Source of the DNA: Mobula hypostoma | Taxonomy: Eukaryota | Reading direction: 5' to 3' | Assembly: GCF_963921235.1 (NCBI RefSeq) | Contig: NC_086108.1 | Location: 35,280,001 to 35,344,000 of the forward strand | Length of the DNA stretch: 64,000 nt | Shown: positions 36,363 to 62,429 of the stretch, one piece after another | How the letters are laid out: every line of letters starts with the position of its first letter | Numbering within the stretch: the first letter of the stretch is position 1 | Made by a program: the position numbers and the translations under genes | Notes under the pieces: generated by a model | What the model saw: only the letters and a program-made list of their open reading frames with translations | Databases searched by the model: none | Told to the model about the DNA's origin: nothing

Positions 36363-38213
36363 ACCATATACAGTAAGGATATCATTCCTTGCTTCCCATC
36401 TCACCTTCATACCTGATTTGTCATTGCATATCCAGCTGCGACAATTAGTCTGGAAAAGAAAATCACTGTTGTTACTAGACAAATTACCTGAAAACAGAGT
36501 AGAAACGAACAGCTTATTTTTGATTTGGCAGCTTATGACTAGAGGTACAACAGGGATCGGTGCTGAGCTCCTGTCTGTTTGCAACCTGTATCTGTGAATT
36601 GCATGAAGGCATATCATCAATATATCTAGGTTTGGTGATAATATGAAGCTCAATCTCAATGTAAGCGAGAGGAGGGTGCAAAGAGGCTTCAGGGAAATAA
36701 ATGCAAGCAAAATGAAGAGAGAATTAGACTTTGCCCTGGCCTCTAATTCCCCCACATCCCTGTCCCTAAACCTTAAGGCAATCGCCTGTCTGTCCTCAAA
36801 ACCATCCTTACAAACCTGAAAGCAACATTGCTGTGGGTGGCTAGGCCATACAGAAAGCTATGGATATTGCCCACTGGCATTAACCAATGGGTGATCCCAG
36901 TGATGTTACTGAGACCCAATGGGCTTACAATGAAGAAAACTTCTAGACAAGGATTTATGATGAAAAGGGCTGAACAATAACAGGGAAGACAATTCACTTA
37001 GTGTGTGCTGCCAGTGGGATTTTGTTTTAACAAAATATTCCTGGGTGGTATACTCTGGATGCACAGCATCTAATTTGCATATGGCAAGGCCATTCAATAA
37101 TCAGGTAAATTGTAGCTTAATTAGGACACCGATTTTATTTTAACACATCATGGGATTGATTACACCCTCTTGCAGTGCAGAACTCCATAGCTGACACAGT
37201 GTCAACTACCTCCCTAAGAGACAGAGTTACTACAAATTGCTCAAAAAGTTGGCAGAATCTGGTTTAATGACTAATGAGAGGGAACGTTTTTGGCATTATT
37301 TGACTGTGCAGTGGCTAACAGAGATGCAGGCTACATGGGAAACTCAGATTACCACCTCCACTTATCATTAATTAATAAACACGTAATCATATTTTGATTC
37401 AGTACTGTTTTTCAGAGGATTGGTTGATTAAAATACACTCAATGATATATAGATTCCCTTTAAGAATGAAACTGATTTTGACTTTTTCCTAGTCTTTTTG
37501 TCGATTGTTTTAATGAAGGTTGAGCAGTTTGGAGATCTAAATCAACATGAACAAGTGAAATAAGTTAATTATTTCGATCGTTTCAAACTGGCAAATATGA
37601 TGAATTTCTAAAGTACTCATCTGGATTAAGTTGCTTAAAATAAGCTACCTTTATTTCAGAATTCAACAGAGGAAAAGATAAAAAGAGTATTAACATCCAT
37701 CATGGTAATTTATTGTCTGTTGAATATTAACCTTCGATGATTGACTGACAAACTTCCTTGGATTTTGAATGGTAAATGTAACATTGATGGTCAAATGCTC
37801 CACCTGCTGGCCCACCCCAGTGGTGTGAGCACTCAGAGATCAGCAAAGGGCAGGAGCAAAGAAAGCTTAAAGCAATCTTGAACTGTCTCATCTCTCCTGC
37901 TGACAATGGCATCACTATTTCCACCCCCATCACCACCCCGTGCCATTTGTTACAACTTAATCAATCTGAGTGGTATAAAGACACCTCCTAATACTCTCTG
38001 CCTTTAAAAGAAATCAGATATTGAAGTCATCTTCTGTCCCAAGGGATGGCTTAAGAAGCAGACTTCATGAAATATCAGCTTATATCAAATAACAATTTAT
38101 GGACCATTGTAAAATAAATGCCTTGATCCTTACAAGTGCAAATTTAATGTCATTTGCAAGACCTTATGACAAGCTGACATGAGTTCATATGAGATGGCAT
38201 GAGAACTGACTCA

Positions 38214-39810
38214 TCAACCAGTTTCCCTCCACCATCACCCTCCTCCGTCTGGCTTTCAACCAGTTTCCCTCCACCACAACCCTCCTTCACCTGCTACAGC
38301 AGGTCCTCACCGTCAACAATTTTTCCTTTGGCTCCTCCCAATTTCTCTAGACTTGGGGGGGGGTTGCCATGGGCACCCACCTCGGCCCCAGCTATGCCTG
38401 CCTTTTTTTATGGCTATGTAGAGCAGTCCATGTTGCAAGAATTCCGCAGTATTGCTCTTAACTCTTGCTCCACTACCTTGGCGACTGCATTGGTGCTGCT
38501 TCATGCACCCATGCTGAGCTCGTCAATTTCATCAACTTTGCCTCTAACTTCCAACCTGCCCTTAAGTTCACTTGGTCCATTTCTGACACCTTGCTCACCT
38601 TCCTCAATTTCTCTGTCTCTATCTCTGGAGACAAAATGTCAACCGACATATTTATAAACCTACCGATTCCCATGGCTATCTTGACTATACCTCTGCCTTC
38701 CCTGTCTCCTGTAAAAATACTATTCCCTTTTCTCAGTTCCTTTGTCTCCACCGCAGGATGAGGCTTTCCTTTCCAGGACATCAGAGATGTCCTCCTTCTT
38801 CAAAGAATGGTGTTTCCCTACCACCACCATTGATACTGCCATCACCAACATCTCTTCCATTTCCTGAACATCCCTCTCACCCCATCTTCCTGCTGCCTTA
38901 ACAGCAAGAAAGTTCCTCTTGTCCTTACCTACCACCCCATGAACCTCTGCATTCAACACATCATTCTCTGTACTTTTACCATTTCCAAAAGGATCCTACC
39001 ACCAAATACATCTTTAATTACCCCCCTCCTCCACCTTCTGCAGGGATCACCCCCTCCGTGATTCCTTTGTCTATTCGTTCCTCCCCACTAATCTCCCTTG
39101 CTGCTCTGATCCCTGCAAGCAGCCAAAGTGCTACACCAGTTTATACACCTCCTCTCTCACTTCCATTCAGGGTCCCAAACAGTCCTTCCAGGTGAGGCAA
39201 CACTGCTGGGGTCATCCATTGTGTCCAGAGCTCCTGATGTGGCCTCCTCTACATTGGTGGGACCCATCATAAATTGATGGACTGCTACATCAAGCACCTC
39301 CACTCCATCCACCAAAAATGCAACTTCCCGCTAACCAAACTTTTTAATTCCAACTCCCATTCCCATTCCATGGTCTCTTCTTGTCCCACGATGAGGCCGC
39401 CCTCAGGATGAACGCCTCATATTCCATCTGGGTAGCTTCCAACCTGATGGCAGGAATATTGATCTCTCCTGGGAAAATAAATCTTTCCCTCTTCCTCTCC
39501 ACTTCTTCTATTCCCTACTCTAGCCCCTTACCTCCTCTTCCCTGCCTATTACCACCCCCCCTTTTTCCTATGGTCTACTCTCCTCTCCTATCAGATTCCT
39601 TCCTTTCCAGCCCTTTACTTACCTACCCACCTAACTTAAGGTAAGACCTCGAGCTATCCTCCTTCCCCTCCACCAACCTTTTTTTTCTGGCATCTTCTCC
39701 CTTCCTTTCCAGTCCTGAAGAAGGGTCTCGGCCCAAAATGTCGACTATTTATTCATCCCCAGAGATGCTCTCTGACCAGCTGAGTTCCTCCAGCATTCTG
39801 TGTGCCTTGC
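38214..39810 (+). mobile_element. Penelope-like element (RT C-half + GIY-YIG + terminal repeat), decayed
   Basis: AMGT..APAMP, GYVEQS, YLGDCIG (from YIDD), FHPALKFT-like, FLD-like; degenerate hammerhead at 39710-39747. Confidence 0.88.
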
Positions 39811-40734: not shown

Positions 40735-42120
40735 CAGAATCAGAATCAGGACCAGGTTTATTACCACTGACATGTGCCGTGAAATTTGTTAACTCACCAG
40801 CAGCAGTTCAATGCAATACATAATATAGAAGAAGAAGGAAAAAAAATTAAATAATAATAATAATTAAATAAGTAAATCGATTACAGTACACGTATATTGA
40901 ATAGATTAAAAACTGTGCAAAAAACAGAATATATGTTAAAAAAGTGAGGTGGTGTTCATGGGTTCAATGCTCATTTAGGAATCAGGTGGCAGAGGGGAAG
41001 AAGCTGTTCCTGAATCGCTGAGTGTGTGCTTTCAGGTTTCTGTACATCCTGCCTGATGGTAACAGTAAGAAAACGGCATGCCCTGGGTTCTGGAAACCCT
41101 AATAATGGACGCTGCCTTTCTGAGACACCACTCCTTGAAGATGTCCTGAGTACTTTGTAGGCTAGTACCCAAGATGGAGCCGACTAAATTTACAACCCTC
41201 TGCAGTTTCTTTTGGTCCTATGCAGTAGCCCCTCCATACCAGACACTGATGCAGCCTGTCAGAAAGCGCCCCACGGTACATCTATAGAAGTCTTTGAATG
41301 TATTTGTTGACATACCAAATCTTTTCAAACTCCTAATGAAGTATAGTCGCTGTCTTGCCTTCCTTATAGCCGCATCGATATGTTGCAAACAGGTTAGGTC
41401 CTCAGAGATCTTGACACCCAGGAACTTGAACCTGCTCACCCTCTCCTCTTCTGATCTCTCAATGAGGATTGGTATGTGTTCCTTCATCTTACCCTTCCTG
41501 AAGTCCACAATCAGCTCTTTCAGCTTACTGATATTGTGTGCAAGGTTGTTGCTGCGACACCACTCCACTAGTTGGCATATCTACTCCTGTACGCCCTCTT
41601 GTCACCACCTGAGATTCTACCAACAATGGTTGTATCATCAGCAAATTTATAGATGGTGTTTGAGCTGTGCTTAGCCACACAGTCATGTGTATATAGAGAG
41701 TAGAGCAGTGGGCTAAGCACACACCCCTGAGGTGCACCAGTGTTCATCATCAATGAGGAGGAGATGTTATTACCAATCTGCACAGATTGCAGTCTTCCAG
41801 TTAAGAAGTCGAAGACCCAATTGCAGAGGGAGGTACAGAGGCCCAGGTTCTGTAATTTCTCAATCAGGATTGTGGGAATGATGGTATTGAAGGCTGAGCT
41901 ATAGTCGATGAACAGCATCCTGACATAGGTGTTTGTATTGTCCAGGTGGTCTAAAGCCATATGGAGAGCCATTGAGATTGCATCTGCTGTTGACCCATTG
42001 TGGAGATAGGCAAATTACAATGGGTCCTGGTCCTTGCTGAGGCTCAGTCTAGTCATGACCAACCTCTCAAAGCTCTTCATCACTGTCGATGTGAGTGCTA
42101 CCGGGCGATAGCAATTAAGG
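40735..42120 (-). mobile_element. Rex1/Babar LINE 3' half
   Basis: [49 protein letters not shown]; (TCTGAT)n tail at 40735-40750. Confidence 0.93.
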
Positions 42121-42532: not shown

Positions 42533-44848
42533 CGGGGTGGCCAACCTTTTACATTCCATGTGTCAATTTTTTCACGCACGAGTTCAGATATGCCATACAA
42601 CTCTTGTTCCCCCATTCAAATCTTGTAAAATATGTTAATATAGACATATTTAACATTTTTACATGATATATTGATTTAATATAAAAACAAAATAAACATT
42701 ACTTACCTTAATAAGACTTCTGAGTCTGTTTTATTTTCGCTAAGATTTTAATGCTTGGAGTTAAATTGGTTACTGAGAGCAGCAGAGAATTCTTCAAATT
42801 TGAATCAGTCAATCGTGACCTCGTTTTGTTTTCATTCAATTTCATGGCTGAAAATGCTTGTTCACATCTGTATGTCGTTCCGAAACGACAGATATAACTC
42901 TGGGCAAATTTTCTTAGTTCTGGAAAATGTTCACAGGGTAATGATCACCAGAAATGAATCATGTCAGAAGCATTTGGGACTGAGGGAAGCTCATCAAATT
43001 TCATGTTCAATAATGAATTTGTTTTCAAGTCAGTAAGCTCCATTTGTATGTTACTAGGCATCTTCATGATTTTTTGTTCACTAAATGAAAATGGGTTTTG
43101 TAAATGCAAGTATGCGGTCTTCTTCTTTAGCAAAATCATGAAAACAACTTTCAAATGACTCTTGCAATAACCTGATTTTTTCAATATATTTTCTAAAATT
43201 GCCATTATCTTCAGCACATTCACTCTGCTCTTTTAAGTACGGAAACTGGCTCAAATCCTCATTTTCTAACTGAGAGTTGAACAGTTTTAACTTCATCTTG
43301 AATACATTGATATCATTTACTAAGCTAGGAAACAATTTGTTCTTGCCCTGGAGTTTCAAATTTAGATCATTAAGATGGCTGGTAACATCAACTAAAAATG
43401 CTAAATCAAATAGCCAGTTGTTATCACATAAAAGGGCCCTTTCCTCAGGCTGCTCATTTTTCTCTTCTAGAAAATTATGAACAGTATTTTTCAGCTTCCA
43501 AAATCTACTCAGAACCTGTCCTCTAGAAAGCCAGCTCACCTCACAGTGAAGGACAAGATCGCCCTATTCCAAATCTAACATTTCACAATAATCTCTGAAT
43601 TCTCATCTGTTTAATCCTCTTGCTCTAATTCTATTCACGCATTTCACAACCAGTAACATAACATGCTGCAAATTTAAAGTTTTTCCACACAGTGACTCTT
43701 GGTGTATAATGCAATGATATTTTAGTAGAGGATGATCTAAAAAGTCTTCAAGCAAAGTTGTAGTCCCAGTGGTTTTACCTATCATTGACGGTGCTCCGTC
43801 AGTACAAACACCAGCGAGTTTACTAGAATCTAGTTGTAGATTTTCTAGGCATGATTTTACTTTGTCAAATATGTCTGATCCTCTTGTTTTTCCATGAAGC
43901 GATTCAAGACAAAGACGCTAAAATTATCATCAATTTCTCTTATAAAAATGCTTAACTGGGCTACGTCACATATGTCAGCAGATTTGTCCAAAGCTAAAGA
44001 AAAGCAAGTACAAGCATGGACGAGGTCTTTCAGTTGCTCAGATACATCATGACAGAATTCTTCGGTGCATCTCGTAACTGTTTGCTTCGACAGAGCAATT
44101 TCTTCTATTTTCCTTTCGATATTTTTATCACCAAAACATCTTGCAAATATTTGAAGATGAGGCTTAACAATTTCTTCTCCATCAGAGAAAGACTTCAGTT
44201 TTTTGGTCAACGCTAAAGCAATTTCGTAGGACGCTTCTGTCTTCACCAAATTTTTACCATCACTTTCTGCTTTTCTTTTGCTCATTTTCTTTTGCACTGT
44301 GCTGGGTAACTGAATGTAAAAACAAGGCTTAACTTTTGAAAAAGTACAAAACTGCAAATGTTCACAAAGGACAAACAAAGGCCAACTCCGTAGCACACAA
44401 GCGTCATTTGTAAACTGACCGGCACAAACCTGCGACGCACCATTGGTGCAGACGCCTGGCGCCTCAGGATCAAACAATTATCAAACGTGTATTGAACAGT
44501 TATGGAATGACTGCAGAACAAAAGTCCTTCTTTCCTAGTTTGACTCATTGAACATTTTTTTAATTGAAAACAGTTTAATGTGAAAGAAGATAACATTTGC
44601 CAAAAGATGTGCATGAAATAATAAAATCGCTAAAAATAATTGCTAACTTTTAGATTTATTCTCAGTAAATCCCATTTCTAGCTCTAAGCTACTTGAATTC
44701 CTGTTATAGATTTTTTTTTCTACAAATCCGTTTTTGGTTAATACTTTTTGCATGAGTAGGCTTACTCTTTTATTATTATCACTGGGGTGCAATACTAGTC
44801 ATCCAATGCTCCACTTTTGATGCAAACACCATAGGTTGTCCATCCCAG
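42533..44848 (-). mobile_element. hAT (Charlie/Buster-type) DNA transposon with a decayed transposase
   Basis: Imperfect TIRs CGGGGTGGCCAACCT / AGGTTGTCCATCCCAG and a perfect 8-bp TSD TTCTACAC (42525-42532, 44849-44856). Motifs include FSLALD, AQLSIFIR, TDGAPSMIG, HCIIHQESLC, WLSRG and DLAFLVD..HLN.LNLKLQG. Confidence 0.95.
42890..44285 (-). pseudogene. hAT transposase pseudogene (GTF2IRD2/SPIN-like fold), split over several frames
   Basis: ORFs 43857-44477, 43603-43785, 43081-43539 and 42945-43223 are successive pieces. Confidence 0.88.
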
Positions 44849-45164
44849 TTCTACACTGTGGTTACAAGGAACTTTATCCATTCATGATGGTTTCCCTATC
44901 CAAGGAGAATTTCAAAATATGACAATTACTATTAAGAACTCATACAGTGCTTGTGCATTCTTCATGACCACAGTGAAAGTTCAACTTTACTGGTTAAGCC
45001 CTTTCTGCTAGTTTGCAATATCACAGTGACAGTATGACACTTAAGATTTGATGAGGAGTTGGAGAGCACATTTTAAAAAAAAATTATTGTGCATTGTTAC
45101 ATCTTGGTGTGAAGTCTGAGCTGCCTGCAGTTAGGTAATCACAGTCAGCTCTCGTGGAGAGAAA

Positions 45165-45255
45165 CACACACAAAGTGCTGGAGGAACTCAGCAGGTCAGG
45201 CAGAATCTATGGAAATGAATAAACAGTCGACAGTTCGGGAAGAGACTCTTCTTCT
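45165..45255 (-). mobile_element. Penelope terminal-repeat fragment, truncated within the hammerhead motif
   Basis: acacacaaagtgctggaggaactcagcaggtcaggcag..ctatggaaatgaataaacagtcgac. Confidence 0.8.
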
Positions 45256-45615
45256 TGTGTAGAGGTGTGAGATTGAGCATGGGCTCTAAGTGTCGGATGA
45301 ATACACCCAATGGTCAAGAGAAAGGTGGTGCTTCCCCCAAAAAACTTAAATCACCTTTAATCATCTCCTAAGCATGGGTGGTGCACACGGGACAGTTTTC
45401 ATATTTTTAAAACATTTATCTGTGCCACTGTTACATCTTGGTGTGAAGTCTGAGCTACATGCCGTGAGGTAATCAAAGCTGCATGGTACATAATCCCTAG
45501 TGTATCACTCTACCAGATGCCCATTGGTATTAACAGACAGGGTTTTATTTCAAGCAACACACATCAAAGTTGCTGGTGAACGCAGCAGGCCAGGCAGCAT
45601 CTCTAGGAAGAGGTG

Positions 45616-45653
45616 CAGTCGACGTTTCAGGCCAAGACCCTTCGTCAGGACTA
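45616..45653 (-). ncRNA. Minimal type I hammerhead ribozyme motif (intact core)
   Basis: Minus strand reads UAGUC-CUGACGA-AGGGUCUUGGCCU-GAAA-CGUC-GACUG. Confidence 0.75.
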
Positions 45654-46014
45654 ACTGAAGGAAGAGTTAGTAAGAGATTTGAAAGTGGGAGGGGGAGGGG
45701 GAGATCCAAAATGATAGGAGAAGACAGGAGGGGGAGGGATGGAGCCAAGAGCTGGACAGGTGATTGGCAAAAGGGATATGAGAGGATCATGGGACAGGAG
45801 GCCCGGGGAGAAAGACAAGGGGGCGGGGAACCCAGACGATGGGCAAGAGGTATATTCAGAGTGACAGAGGGAGAAAAAGGAGAATAAGAGAAAGAATGTG
45901 TGTATAAAAATAAATAACGGATGGGATACAAGGGGGAGGTGGGGCATTAGCGGAAGTCAGAGAAGTCAATGTTCATGCCATCAGGTTGGAGGCTACCCAG
46001 ACGGAATATAAGGT

Positions 46015-46152
46015 GTTTAGATCCTCTCTTCGACGGGAGTTCAGTGAAACCATCTCTCACTGCACCCCATCTGTAATTTCTTCGTTTAGATCCTCTCTTC
46101 AACGGGAGTTCAGTGAAACCATCTCTCACTGCTCCCCATCTGTAATTTCTTC
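46015..46152 (+). repeat. 69-bp tandem duplication (2 copies)
   Basis: GTTTAGATCCTCTC...GTAATTTCTTC at 46015-46083 and 46084-46152, with 2 mismatches. Confidence 0.95.
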
Positions 46153-46449
46153 GGCTCTTCAACTTTTCGACCACATTTTGACTCAGACTCGCTATCACAA
46201 CACATTCTTTCTCTCACTCGCCTTTTTCTCCCTCTGTCCCTCTGACTACACCCCTTTCCCATCCTCTGGGTTCCCCCTCCCAACTTGTCTTTCTCTCTGG
46301 GCCTCCTGTCCAATGATCCTCTCATACCCCCTTTGCCAATCACCTGTCCAGCTCTTGGCTCCATCCCTCCCCCTCCTGTCTTCTCCTATCATTTTGGATC
46401 TCCCCCTCCCCCTCCCACTTTCAAATCTCTTGCTAACTCTTCCTTCAGT

Positions 46450-46487
46450 TAGTCCTGACGAAGGGTCTCGGCCTGAAACGTCGACTG
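46450..46487 (+). ncRNA. Minimal type I hammerhead ribozyme motif (intact core; predicted cleavage after 46482)
   Basis: UAGUC-CUGACGA-AGGGUCUCGGCCU-GAAA-CGUC-GACUG: stem I AGUC/GACU, stem II AGG/CCU, palindromic ACGU stem III. Confidence 0.78.
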
Positions 46488-47224
46488 TACCTCTTCCTAT
46501 AGATGCTGCCTGGCCTGCTGCGTTCACCAGCAACTTTGATGTGTGTTGCTTGAATTTCCAGCATCTGCAGAATTCCTGTTGTTAGGGTTTTATTTCAATC
46601 TGGGTAAGAGGACTGGTTTGGAATCACAGGAAGATGTGAGTTCTGGAGAGGTGGCACCTACTCTGGCCCTCTGTCTCCCTTTTTTTTCAATGAACACTGA
46701 AGCGTATGGTCAGACGGAGTGAGGATTCATTCCTATCAAGGGCCAAGCCAGTGGCAGAAGAGGCTTTGCACTCCAGCAAAGTATAACTAGATCTCCTGCT
46801 GAAATGTCACTGTCTTCAGGCAATTTATGGGTGCCTGCCCCAAGCATCTTGTGAGCTGCGGGCAGGCAGCAAGAGGGGAGTTCAGTTTGACTCGCAGCAC
46901 CTGAGCTGGTGAAGCTTTGGCCTTGCTGGACCATTTCATGGTCCCCAAACTAGCAACCCAAACCCTTTGCTCATTTCTTCACTCCACTCTCAGCAGGTCA
47001 GGTGGTTGTACCTCTGAAGAGAGTGGGACAATGTACAGATCCTGGGGCAAAGTGATCCCCAAACCCTCTGTTAGCATCTGCAGAAAGAAAACATGGAATA
47101 AGTGGGCAGAGGCCCTGTAGCCCACCTCCTTACTGAAAGATAAAAACAGTTACTGCGGCCTTACTATGCATGTTGGGACTAAAGAGCAACATGCCTTGAA
47201 CTGGTGGAGAACAGGAGAGAAGGA

Positions 47225-47460
47225 ACAAAGGCTGGAATAGGCCATTCAGCCTCTGGAGTGCGCTCAGCTGTTCAATAAGTTCCCATTAACTGCTAAGTTC
47301 CACAGAGATAAAAGCTCTCCGTTTCCATAACTTTAAAGGTAAGGAGCTCTGGAGGCTCATGACCCTTTGAGAGAAGAAATTCCTCCTCACATCCTCTCCA
47401 CTTCAATGAGCGAGCCCTTATACTAAAATAAAAGTACTGGTTCTGGACTTTTGCATGAGA
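47225..47460 (-). mobile_element. Old CR1 3' end relic
   Basis: ggaataggccattcagcc...gctgttcaataag; gagaagaaattcctcctcacatc. Confidence 0.55.
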
Positions 47461-48512
47461 GGAGACATTGTCAGATTCAGATGCATTATTTATCTCATGT
47501 ACATCGAAGCATACAGTGCGCTGGGGAAAACCCACGATTGTCACCACACGCTCCTGCGCCAGCATAGCATGTTCACCTTATCCACAGGCAATGACAACAA
47601 GAACAGGTCAACAGTAACAACAATAACAGCAAAACACTCCTCGTACCTCCCTCCCACCCACTAGTCCTCTAGCCCCCAGGACAGGCAAGCTCTGGTCTCC
47701 AGCTTCCAGTGGACTCAGACTCGAGGACGTTGGACCTTCAACTTCTCTAGCAGATTTGCCGAGACTCACAGACCCAGGTCTCGGCATCCCCTTGGCAGTC
47801 CTCTCAGAATACTTTTAACTTCGAGAGGATTGCTTCTACCTACTTCGAACTCCACTGGGTAAGTGCCCTTCGTCACGAGCCAATTCTTGCATTCTAGAAA
47901 TTAAGCAAGAGAGCCTTCTCTGAACTGGTGCAGGAGACTGTGGACAGAAAGGTGTGAGAGCGGATAGGGGAGTAACGCAATGGGTCCAAAGGAATAGTGC
48001 AGGGTAACAGCAGAACTTTCTGTAGCACTTATTGTCTGAAAGGTGACAAACCACTTGCTTTTAAATCAAATCAAATCATTATTCTCACAGTTTGACAAAC
48101 TGAAGCATTCTTCCTCTTTGATAGGTAGTGCTCTCTGTCGGGTCTCCAGCATTCACACTGTTCTGCGATTCGGAAGCTGAGATCATCATGTGCACTTGCA
48201 GTATAACATTGTAAAGGGGTTGATTGGAGAACACACTGCTGTTCCTCAATCAGCTTCATTTGAACGTGAGGATAAATAAAACACAGGTATGAATAGGCAT
48301 CTATTTGGAAACACAGTCCCTTGCTTTGTGTTGAGAAGTGCAGCCACTCAATGCTTGGTTCATAGTTTTCATATTGTCACATCATGCCATTCTGCCCATT
48401 GAGTCTATGGTGGCTCTTCCATCATTCCCAGCAACGCCACACCCCCACTTCATGCCATGCAGGAATGTCCCTCATGCAGTACAAGCCCCATTCTTTTGCT
48501 CTTCCCGTACAT

Positions 48513-56359: not shown

Positions 56360-57165
56360 TTCAATATCAATATCTTGGAAGCTCTTTCCTGAGCACAACA
56401 ATCAATGCAATCTCAAAGAAAGCATGTCAGTAGTCCCTCCTCATTAGGAGTTTGAGACTGGCACCAAAAGTTCCTATAACTCTCTACAGATGTGCAGTGA
56501 AGGGCGTTCTGACGGGTTGCATCAGTGCCTGGTGTTGACCCTCCGATGCACAGGATCACAAGCAGCTGCAGACTCAAGCCAGATATAACATGGACACAAA
56601 CCTCCCCACCATAATGGGTGTCTTCAAGAGGCGGTGCCTCGAGAAGGTGGCAGCTATCACTAAAGCTCCTCACTATTAGGGACATGCCTTCTTCTTGTTA
56701 GTACCAATGGGAAAGAGGTACCAGAGAAGACCCACACTCAATGATTCAGAAACAGCTTCTTCCCCTCCCCTCCATCAGATTTCTAAACTATCAGTGAACC
56801 TATGAACACTACGCTGTTAATCCATTTTTGCTCTATTTATTTATTTTGTAATTTATTGTAATTTTATGCTTTTGCACTGAACTACTACTGCGAAACAGCA
56901 AATTTCACATGACACACACAAAAATTGCTGGTGGACGCAGCAGGCCATGCAGCATCTATAGGAAGAGGTACAGTCGACGAAGGGTCCCGGCCCGAAACGT
57001 CGACTGTACCTCTTCCTATAGGTGCTGCCTGGCCTGCTGCGTTCACCAGCATTTTTTGTGTGTGTGTTGCTTGAATTTCCAGCATCTGCAGATTTCCTCG
57101 TATCTGCGTTTTTAAATTTCACGTGATCTAAGTCAGTGATAATAGAGTTGATTCAGATCCTGAAT
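56360..57165 (+). mobile_element. Rex-type LINE 3' end hosting a hairpin insertion
   Basis: Decayed NFYRCAV..VLTGCISAW and LPMGKRY. The 3'UTR aaatttca(c)..tgataata..gattcagat is split by the insertion. Confidence 0.75.
56900..57126. mobile_element. ~200-bp young hairpin element from a Penelope terminal repeat, with a 13-bp TSD
   Basis: Arms 56913-56979 and 56998-57064 are near-perfect inverted repeats around the loop AAGGGTCCCGGCCCGAAA. TSD AAATTTCACATGA / AAATTTCACGTGA. Confidence 0.92.
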
Positions 57166-59985: not shown

Positions 59986-60535
59986 TACCCTCTGGCTAAA
60001 GAAAGGTCTCCACATCTCTGTTTTAAATGGTGCCCCTCTATCCTGAGGCTGTGCCCTCTTGTCCTAGACTCCCCCACCATGGGAAACGTCCTTGCCACAT
60101 CTACTCTGTCTAAGCCTTTCAACATTCAAAAGGTTTCAAAACTCTCCACTTCATGTAATTAATCTGTATGCCTCACCTGTGTGGAGTGAGCGGCTGGCCA
60201 TCCTCGAGCAGTTCACCTAAATTCCAGCCAGTACAGGCCCAAAACCATCAATGTTCTCCATAGGATAACCTTTTTATTCCCGGAATCATTCTTGTGAACC
60301 TCCTCTGAATCCTCCCCATGGCAGCACATCTTTTCTTAGATAAGGAGCCTAAAACTGCTCTCAATACTCAAGGTGAGGCCTCACCAGTGCCTTATAAAGC
60401 CTCAGCAAGATGTCCCTGCTCTTATGTTCTAGACCTCTTGAAATGAAAGCTAACATTGCATTTGCCTTCCTCAGCACTGACTCTACCTGCAAGTTAACCT
60501 TTAGCGTATTCAGCACAAGGACTGCCAAGTCCCTT

Positions 60536-61586
60536 GTGCTTCGGCCTTCTTTGGCCCTCACCCCATCCTCCCGTCACCACAACAGGGACAGAGTTCCCCT
60601 TGTCCTCACCTACCACCACACCAGCCTCTGGATCCAGCACATTATCCTCCGCAACTTCCGCCACCTTCAACAGGACCCCACCACTAAGCACATCTTTCCC
60701 TCTCTACCCCTCTCCACTTTCCATAGGGATTGTTCCCTTCGTGATTCCCTGGTCCACACGTCCCTCCCCACCAATCTCCCACCCGACATTTACCCCTGTA
60801 AGCGTAAGTGCTACACCTGTCCCTACACCTCCTCTCTTGCCACTATTCAGGGCCCCAAACAGTCCTTCCAGGTGAGGCAACACTCCACTTGTGAGTCTGT
60901 TGGGGTCATCTATTGCATCCGGTGCTCCTGGTGCGGCCTCCTCTACATTGGTGATACCCGACACAGATTGGGGGACTGCTTCGTCAAGCACCTCCACTCT
61001 GTCCACCACAACGGACTGGATCTCCTGGTAGCCACCCACTTCAACTCTGCTTCACATTCCCATTCGGATTTGTCCATACATGGCCTCCTCTACTGCCATG
61101 ATGAGGCTAAACTCAGGTTGGAGGGGCAACACCTCATATGCCATCTAGGTAGTCTCCAGCCCCTTGGCATGAACATAGAATTCTCCAACTTCCGGTAATT
61201 CCCTCCCCCTCACTTCCCCCAACCCAGATTCACTCTGGCCCCTCCTCCAGCTGGCTATCACCTCTCTCATGGCTCTGCCTCCTTCTACTACCCATCGTAC
61301 TTTCCTCTATTCCTTCTTCACCTTTCCTGCCTATCCCCTCCCTGCTTCCCCTCCCCCACCCCTTGATCTTTCCCCTTACTGGTTTCTCACCTGGCACCTA
61401 CCAGCCTTTTCCTTCCCACCCTCCCCCCACCTTCTTTATAGGGCCCCTGCCCTCTCCCTCTTCAGTCCTGACGAAGAGTCTCGGCCCTAAACGTTAACTG
61501 TTCATTTCCACGGATGCTGCCCGATCTGCTGAGTTCCTCCAGCGTGTTGCTTTGACCCCAGCGTCTGCAGAGTATTTTGTGTTTAT
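60536..61586 (+). mobile_element. Penelope-like 3' end (uninterrupted GIY-YIG frame + terminal repeat) with a 16-bp TSD
   Basis: RVPLVLTYH, C..C.TC, VIYCIRCSWCGLLYIGDT..RL..F..H, LGSLQPLGMN; degenerate hammerhead at 61463-61500. TSD GACT(G/C)CCAAGTCCCTT at 60520-60535 and 61587-61602. Confidence 0.93.
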
Positions 61587-62429
61587 GACTCCCAAGTCCC
61601 TTTGCACCTCAGATTTTTGGATTTTGTCTCATTTAAAAAAATAATCTGCACATTTATTTCTTCTACCAAAGTCCATGGCAATGCACTTTCCAACATTGAA
61701 TTTCATTTGCCACTTTCTTACCCATTCTCCTAAACTGTCTAAGCCTTCTGCAGCCGACCTGTTTCCTCAACACTACCTGCCCCTCCACCAATCTTTATAT
61801 TATCTGTAAACTGGCAACAAAGCCATCTATTCCATCATCTAACACATTGATATACAGCATAAAAGGAAGTGATTGTAAGTACTGAGAAAGAGAGAGAGAG
61901 AGAAATGTTTCTAGAACTGAATATAGAAAAGTTGGGTTGATGGAGTGATGAAGAATGTTGAGGAGACATGGAAGGAAATGATCAGAGATTTATTTTACAT
62001 AGTCATTGTCAGAGTAACCAGGCCCATGAAGTGCTGATGTTAAAGAAGCGGATGAGATGATGGACCAAAAGATCAGAAAGATTTATCGTAAAAATAATTG
62101 TATTCAGCAGCACAATTTTTTTTTAGTTTTCATGTGTGCTTTTCTCTTGAGAAAATACAAGAAATAATGCATATTACGGGAAATTTACTGTGACTCTGTT
62201 GGCGCAGAGCAGGCTGACAGGGTATTTTTTGAATCGGAAGTTCTGGTCTTTATCAGAGTTTGATTATATCACCACATGAATCTGCCTCATAAGGATTGTT
62301 ACTTCAGGCATTGGCAATAATAAAATCTGTGCGGGCGATTTTCGCCAGCAATTTTGAGCTCAAGTACCAAGCGTGAGATCTTATTTTGCTGTGACTGTGG
62401 GAAACCACAAAACGACAATGGTGGTAAGG

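Follow-up and report, generated by a model that had tools for sequence, protein, structure and literature searches.

A likely old RT-less fold-back insertion of two truncated PLE copies, likely a by-product of element insertion

The segment at 45539-46598 of the window (the whole 64-kb stretch of DNA that was analyzed) is, with good confidence, an RT-less insertion bounded by target duplications (TSDs) and composed of two head-to-head truncated PLE copies, likely formed in one event by an element acting in trans and likely dead on arrival. The structure is real, and the unit is likely an old, ordinary PLE by-product in an already described layout rather than a new self-copying element. It shows the features of EN+ PLE insertions: an ORF ending in GIY-YIG is followed by pLTR/3′ UTR sequence, a minimal hammerhead lies within the pLTR, and the layout combines an inverted 5′-truncated copy, a one-sided tail, and a TSD (Table 1). 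The layout, the endonuclease end, and the hammerheads support the Penelope origin proposed in a first-pass annotation of this DNA, and six-frame translation of the unit agreed with its statement that RT coding sequence is absent.

Table 1. Features of the fold-back insertion (positions in the window)
Feature	Positions	Strand	Description
Left TSD	45539-45553	.	15 bp, AT-rich
Left arm	45554-45901	-	3′ part of PLE 3′ UTR/pLTR, inverted, without tail
Minimal type I hammerhead core, left	45621-45648	-	Extra A after A9, G10.1-U11.1, palindromic 15.1-16.1
3′ UTR start and stop codon (45947-45949)	45902-45949	-	Left copy only; family loose end before 46200 matches
Last 22 PLE ORF codons, end of GIY-YIG endonuclease region	45950-46017	-	Inverted copy 5′-truncated at 46017
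69-bp unit, first copy	46015-46083	+	Likely beginning of PLE ORF, directly 3′ of tail; shares 3 nt (GTT) with inverted copy
69-bp unit, second copy plus 47 bp	46084-46199	+	38 codons resemble shark proteins; likely PLE ORF start
Right arm	46200-46554	+	5′-truncated 3′ UTR/pLTR, direct orientation
Minimal type I hammerhead core, right	46455-46482	+	Predicted cleavage after 46482
Tail, right arm only	46555-46583	+	29-nt PLE tail; family 3′ ends at 46577-46583
Right TSD	46584-46598	.	15 bp, exact copy of left

The unit proper spans 45554-46583 (1030 bp), and the exact 15-bp direct repeats that bound it on both sides bear out the earlier reading of a single insertion flanked by such a repeat. The best match among 2000 random window pairs was 10 bp, with none of the 2000 above that length. 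Both element 3′ ends face outward, the tail is present on one side only, and short overlaps occur at the junctions. Because the last five TSD bases are also complementary to 46550-46554, the left element end was placed at 45549-45554. The right-arm tail, which the first-pass annotation did not mention, measures 29 nt, or 34 nt if the 5-nt overlap is counted as host. On the right side, a contig of run X4, which may be the source sample, is identical over 46562-47600, and a contig of run X8, from the related organism B, aligns over 46563-47600 but differs at 25 letters and has an 11-nt gap, a flank divergence of 2.4%; the tail overlaps of these two contigs are 22 and 21 nt, below our bar of 31 letters. 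The right junction is, from this comparison, likely shared with organism B, and hence the insertion is likely old. PLE inverted structures trouble assemblies (Craig et al. 2021, PMC8557442; this and the other papers cited here were available in part, and statements about them concern those parts), and the read support concerns the right junction only. Nevertheless, an assembly or chimeric-read fold-back artefact is extremely improbable, as the arms differ at 20 sites and by an indel, the TSD is exact at both ends, and contigs of two organisms run from inside the tail into the flank.

The inverted arms, given as about 350 bp in the first-pass annotation, were aligned over 353 bases (45549-45901 and 46200-46554) and found to be 94% alike, with 20 substitutions and a 2-nt indel. 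Their differences were clustered, affecting 16 of 132 inner sites against 4 of 223 outer sites, and none of 1000 permutations was as clustered. The outer arm, for which the neutral expectation is 5.4 differences, the 69-bp duplication (2/69), and the TSD (0/15) all fit the 2.4% divergence of the flank, whereas the inner arm does not. Post-insertion decay was rejected as the source of the inner-arm differences, as only 3.2 would be expected against the 16 seen (P = 1.7e-7). Gene conversion of the outer arms was also considered, but it is not needed because their divergence fits that of the flank. At five or more of the differing sites (at least 46327, 46331, 46432, 46488, and 46500), the left-arm letter is the alternative allele of the family. 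The excess of inner-arm differences and these alternative alleles in the left arm therefore suggest that the arms come from two different source sequences, and the two arms were likely derived from two different templates.

In the first-pass annotation, the spacer was read as the C terminus of a GIY-YIG endonuclease on the minus strand together with an in-frame 69-bp tandem duplication. The 22 codons of the endonuclease C terminus and the tandem duplication itself (46015-46083 and 46084-46152, 97% alike) stand, but the duplicated sequence is not GIY-YIG. The minus-frame spacer ORF shares 17 of 23 residues with the end of a relic ORF at 60398-61195, a match confined to the last 23 of the 82 spacer-ORF residues; the relic resembles GIY-YIG clusters at 0.96-0.97, and Pfam gave no GIY-YIG match for it. 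Beyond 46017, the endonuclease sequence of the family diverges, with 745 contigs of run X4 carrying other letters. No stop interrupts the minus frame within the duplication, but it is the plus frame for which homologues were found. An in-frame duplication of GIY-YIG was accordingly rejected, since the family diverges at 46017, the relic match ends there, and it is the plus frame that has homologues; the open minus frame over the duplication is incidental.

Four of the five proteins matched by the plus frame are predicted shark proteins, which it resembles over their residues 7-44 at 58-68% identity, and this similarity stops at the junction 46199/46200. From these matches, the host is probably a cartilaginous fish. 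The top protein match to the spacer (P0001) is a tandem-repeat protein and was discarded as spurious. The family tail continues with TGCGTTT, and both 69-bp copies start with GTTT, the second one after a C. The spacer at 46015-46199 is likely the sequence found right after the tail, i.e., the start of the PLE ORF, a placement that rests on the 4-5 nt overlap and the protein similarity, with no contig among those listed bridging tail and spacer. Word-based protein searches gave no candidate with a 41-aa spacer piece, kept none of 1045 candidates with the in-window endonuclease relic, and kept 3 of 415 with one shark N terminus, none of which had an RT domain; the ESM Atlas held no usable match for the shark N terminus. 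These protein searches thus yielded neither a link between the shark N termini and an RT nor, for the three word-based queries, a full-length relative. The N-terminal segment is shared by the shark gene models P0002-P0005 and P0012 (named “mucin-2-like,” “uncharacterized,” and “prostatic acid phosphatase-like”), which probably annotate PLE ORF starts as genes; in one of them the segment is fused to an acid phosphatase domain, either through exonization or through model error. The spacer starts at 46015-46020 and 46084-46089 read like a splice acceptor after the pyrimidine-rich tail end, and PLE introns are known near the pLTR.

The same junctions bear on an alternative origin, in which a microhomology deletion removed about 2.5-3 kb of ORF from a PLE that had been full length and carried an inverted 5′ copy, either at the source or later, in the inserted copy. 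There is a precedent in Adineta (Arkhipova et al. 2013, PMC3846280), a short CA-rich similarity lies at 46199/46200, the order of ORF start and then 3′ UTR is collinear with a deletion, and two unlike pLTRs of one parent could give the arm differences. We nevertheless consider this route unlikely, as the unit has no direct 5′ pLTR and both 69-bp copies start within about 4 nt of the family tail end, which would be rare under random truncation. It ends, in any case, in the same dead state as the insertion of two truncated copies that we favor.

As to how the two copies were joined, we tentatively propose that the unit may be the footprint of twin priming, in which a PLE dimer would nick both strands, prime two cDNAs on two element RNAs at two RT starts, and capture the uncopied 3′ remainder of one RNA as the spacer. 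The endonuclease would nick the strands 15 bp apart at an AT-rich site, and each nick would prime one cDNA at one of the two internal positions where RT begins and which delimit the tail, with the two cDNAs probably made on two different RNA molecules. The right cDNA would then fall off at 46200 and jump to the uncopied RNA just 3′ of its own start site, copying part of this 3′ remainder twice and so giving the 69-bp duplication, and the cDNAs would be joined by the 3-nt microhomology at 46015-46017. A unit made in this way, without continuity from tail to ORF start, would presumably be a poor template. The priming order is drawn from this one insertion and the anole element. Self-priming on an antisense template has been favored for PLE inversions (PMC3846280), but it fits less well here, where the arms differ and no palindrome marks the inversion point. 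Discordant alleles in the arms, together with a spacer whose two starts both fall at the tail end, speak for two templates rather than a hairpin that simply primed itself. Application of twin priming to PLEs was not found in the literature searched, most subscription journals being outside its reach.

How inverted ends and tails arise in PLEs is described as an unsettled question in the available parts of two recent studies (PMC8557442; PMC11167929). The locus itself matters little, being one dead copy from a very large family in a known layout, and its remaining value is the two-template signature as a record of the PLE insertion mechanism. If twin priming is true, fold-backs in cartilaginous fish would let the origin of inverted ends be tested against the self-priming model by counts of subfamily alleles in the two arms of each copy.

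The family is very abundant, with 165,764 matching contigs in run X4. In a read-contig comparison covering 45902-47600, the summed depth, which is indicative only and is not copy number, was 40,000-97,000 over the spacer (46015-46199), about 0.8-13 million over the arm, and 7.72 over the unique flank. Family contigs depart from the unit sequence at 46017 and 46200, and none among the contigs listed bridges 46017 or 46199/46200. In further contigs, the spacer is joined to the 3′ UTR at points that differ from the one in the unit (46156 to 46549, 46167 to 46398, and 46195 to 46349). The joint of 46195 to 46349 reached a summed depth of 135.6 over three contigs against 7.72 for the unique flank, depth again not being copy number, and some deleted derivatives with this joint may have been amplified. 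A single copy with the junctions of the unit is present within the window. About 10 kb away, at 56900-57126, the same family has left a second fold-back, which carries a 13-bp TSD of its own with a single mismatch. Its 68-bp arms agree in their subfamily alleles and are inverted at a point within the hammerhead core, the junction is unlike that of the unit, and position 11.1 is C.

These observations bear on whether the unit belongs to a replicating, non-autonomous fold-back PLE family, the whole 1 kb of which would be transcribed and reinserted in trans. Cargo bounded by pLTRs can be mobilized in trans (PMC3846280), the sister joint of 46195 to 46349 has a high summed depth, and the family, including the spacer, was covered in two runs guessed to be RNA. 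The latter runs had no contig on the unique flank (46643-46984) and give no evidence either way, and because the family is multi-copy, their A-to-G counts cannot be read as editing. The evidence leans against such a unit, which we regard as quite unlikely: the layout equals that of the standard PLE by-product, the junction of the second fold-back in the window is not the same, and, by analogy with the anole element, a required stretch downstream of the tail would be missing from that position. Moreover, the divergence of the outer arm, duplication, and TSD fits an old insertion with a right junction apparently common to organism B.

Both hammerheads had been described as complete and intact. 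Core motifs are indeed present in both arms, each with a 5-bp helix I, a 4-bp helix II, an extra A after A9, and a palindrome in place of helix III; they are, however, of the minimal, dimer-requiring type, with U rather than the conserved C at 11.1, and went unscored by Rfam. A canonical type I hammerhead differs from them in its intramolecular helix III, and both arms have G-U at 10.1/11.1. U at 11.1 is also what most of the family carries, with T the majority letter at 46474 and C accounting for about 31% of summed depth. Rfam at its gathering score gave no match in the whole window, and at E up to 10 over 45000-47000 it gave four chance-level matches (E 2-10), none of them a hammerhead. Folded on their own, the 61-nt hammerhead stretches gain no stability over shuffled sequences (z = -0.17 and 0.38).

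A transcript of the unit is predicted to form a long hairpin, as the first-pass annotation proposed, with MFEs of -751 and -770 kcal/mol in the two directions and perfect duplex runs of 100, 54, and 36 bp between the arms. With the copies placed head to head, transcription from either side reaches the complement first and the sense motif second. Folding prediction gave all ten core bases as paired with probability 1.0 in the fold-back, where forcing the hammerhead fold costs 72.6-72.7 kcal/mol against 9-13 kcal/mol in a single arm. With a predicted cost of about 73 kcal/mol, there is therefore no real competition between hammerhead and hairpin, and the earlier suggestion of such competition, already at odds with a sense motif that sits in the last-made arm, is not supported. 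Nor can the unit be called retrozyme-like, as had been suggested: a retrozyme has at least two head-to-tail units with same-sense hammerheads, whereas here each strand has one sense motif, so the unit is not a retrozyme. A read-through transcript is predicted to be a 350-bp hairpin that would neither self-cleave nor circularize, as every core base of its one sense hammerhead is paired and a second hammerhead of that sense is missing. Folding-energy models miss help from protein, because the anole hammerhead needs the protein of its element to cleave.

Such a hairpin could in principle have been exapted by the host as a dsRNA/siRNA source that silences the family. The long perfect duplex runs, the PLE small RNAs described in rotifer and fly (PMC3846280), and the apparent retention of the insertion in two organisms would suit this idea. 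It is very improbable all the same, as nothing distinguishes the copy at 45554-46583 within a very large family, and the match of the outer-arm differences to the neutral expectation means that there is no sign of constraint.

The surroundings of the unit are rich in other repeats. About ten further fragments of the same or related PLE families lie in the window, and a TSD search at nine other PLE fragments found none that was convincing, with one 8-bp match at chance level. Just left of the unit, a 53-bp direct repeat (45092-45144 and 45426-45478, 89% alike, 334 bp apart) encloses a decayed PLE end fragment (45160-45254, minus strand) and is possibly an unusually long target duplication. Longer relics of related PLE subfamilies occur on the plus strand at about 38200-39800 and at 60500-61600, each followed by a decayed hammerhead; the first has what we take to be RT-like and endonuclease-like motifs, and the second has a GIY-YIG-like frame. 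A broken hAT-type transposase relic lies about 1 kb left of the unit (42711-44477, minus strand; Dimer_Tnp_hAT match at 42711-42944), and a LINE RT relic lies at 41221-42014. Pfam searches of 121 of the 125 stop-free stretches of at least 60 aa in 34-58 kb, which leave out the four inside the unit and miss short exons, returned mobile-element domains only, plus a weak ALKBH8_N match within a LINE relic.

Among known systems, the hammerheads resemble the minimal hammerheads of metazoan PLEs (Cervera and de la Pena 2014, PMC4209133) in that all have an additional base inserted between 9 and 10.1, a helix I of 5 bp, and palindromic positions 15-16 with helix III lacking. In that work, a single minimal hammerhead went uncleaved in vitro and dimers cleaved little, G10.1-C11.1 was highly conserved, and opposite-strand pairs of minimal hammerheads lay 100-700 bp apart in Schistosoma. 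Here, by contrast, G-U closes a short helix II of 4 bp, and the cores are about 810 bp apart. Animal non-LTR retrozymes, described as tandem same-sense hammerheads (Cervera and de la Pena 2020, PMC7229834; Li et al. 2026, 10.64898/2026.07.22.740005), are likewise non-coding and PLE-related, with a type I hammerhead and a unit of about 350 bp; they are arranged head to tail with at least two same-sense hammerheads and release monomers and circles, whereas the present arms form an inverted pair.

Frangieh et al. (2024, PMC11167929) studied the PAc protein of Anolis carolinensis (Poseidon), a predicted dimer that favors AT-rich sites, cleaves the two strands, and extends both. Its RT starts at two internal sites spanning the tail, 111-118 nt into the ORF beginning at hammerhead stem II, and it needs RNA to +172; cleavage by the anole hammerhead depends on protein, and insertion in vitro does not require the hammerhead. 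The AT-rich target and, on the proposed mechanism, the two RT starts that span the tail are shared with our unit, and the 111-118 nt from stem II to the 3′ end compare with 121 nt here to the tail end, after which host DNA follows, and with 92 nt to the shorter end. PAc belongs to an autonomous tandem element, whereas the unit at 45554-46583 has no RT.

The closest likeness in layout is to Pen2/Pen2a, with an inverted pLTR, a 31-bp tail, a 9-10 bp TSD, and an internally deleted derivative (PMC3846280), and to the usual PLE form of an inverted 5′-truncated copy with a 30-40 bp tail (PMC8557442). Shared with these are the head-to-head inverted truncated copy, the one-sided tail of about 30 nt, the TSD, the microhomology junctions, and a deleted derivative between inverted pLTRs. 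Compared with the EN+ PLE insertions described in the available parts of these papers, our unit lacks a direct 5′ pLTR, shows no palindrome where the inversion occurs, has a partly duplicated ORF-start piece, and carries a TSD of 15 bp rather than 8-10 bp.
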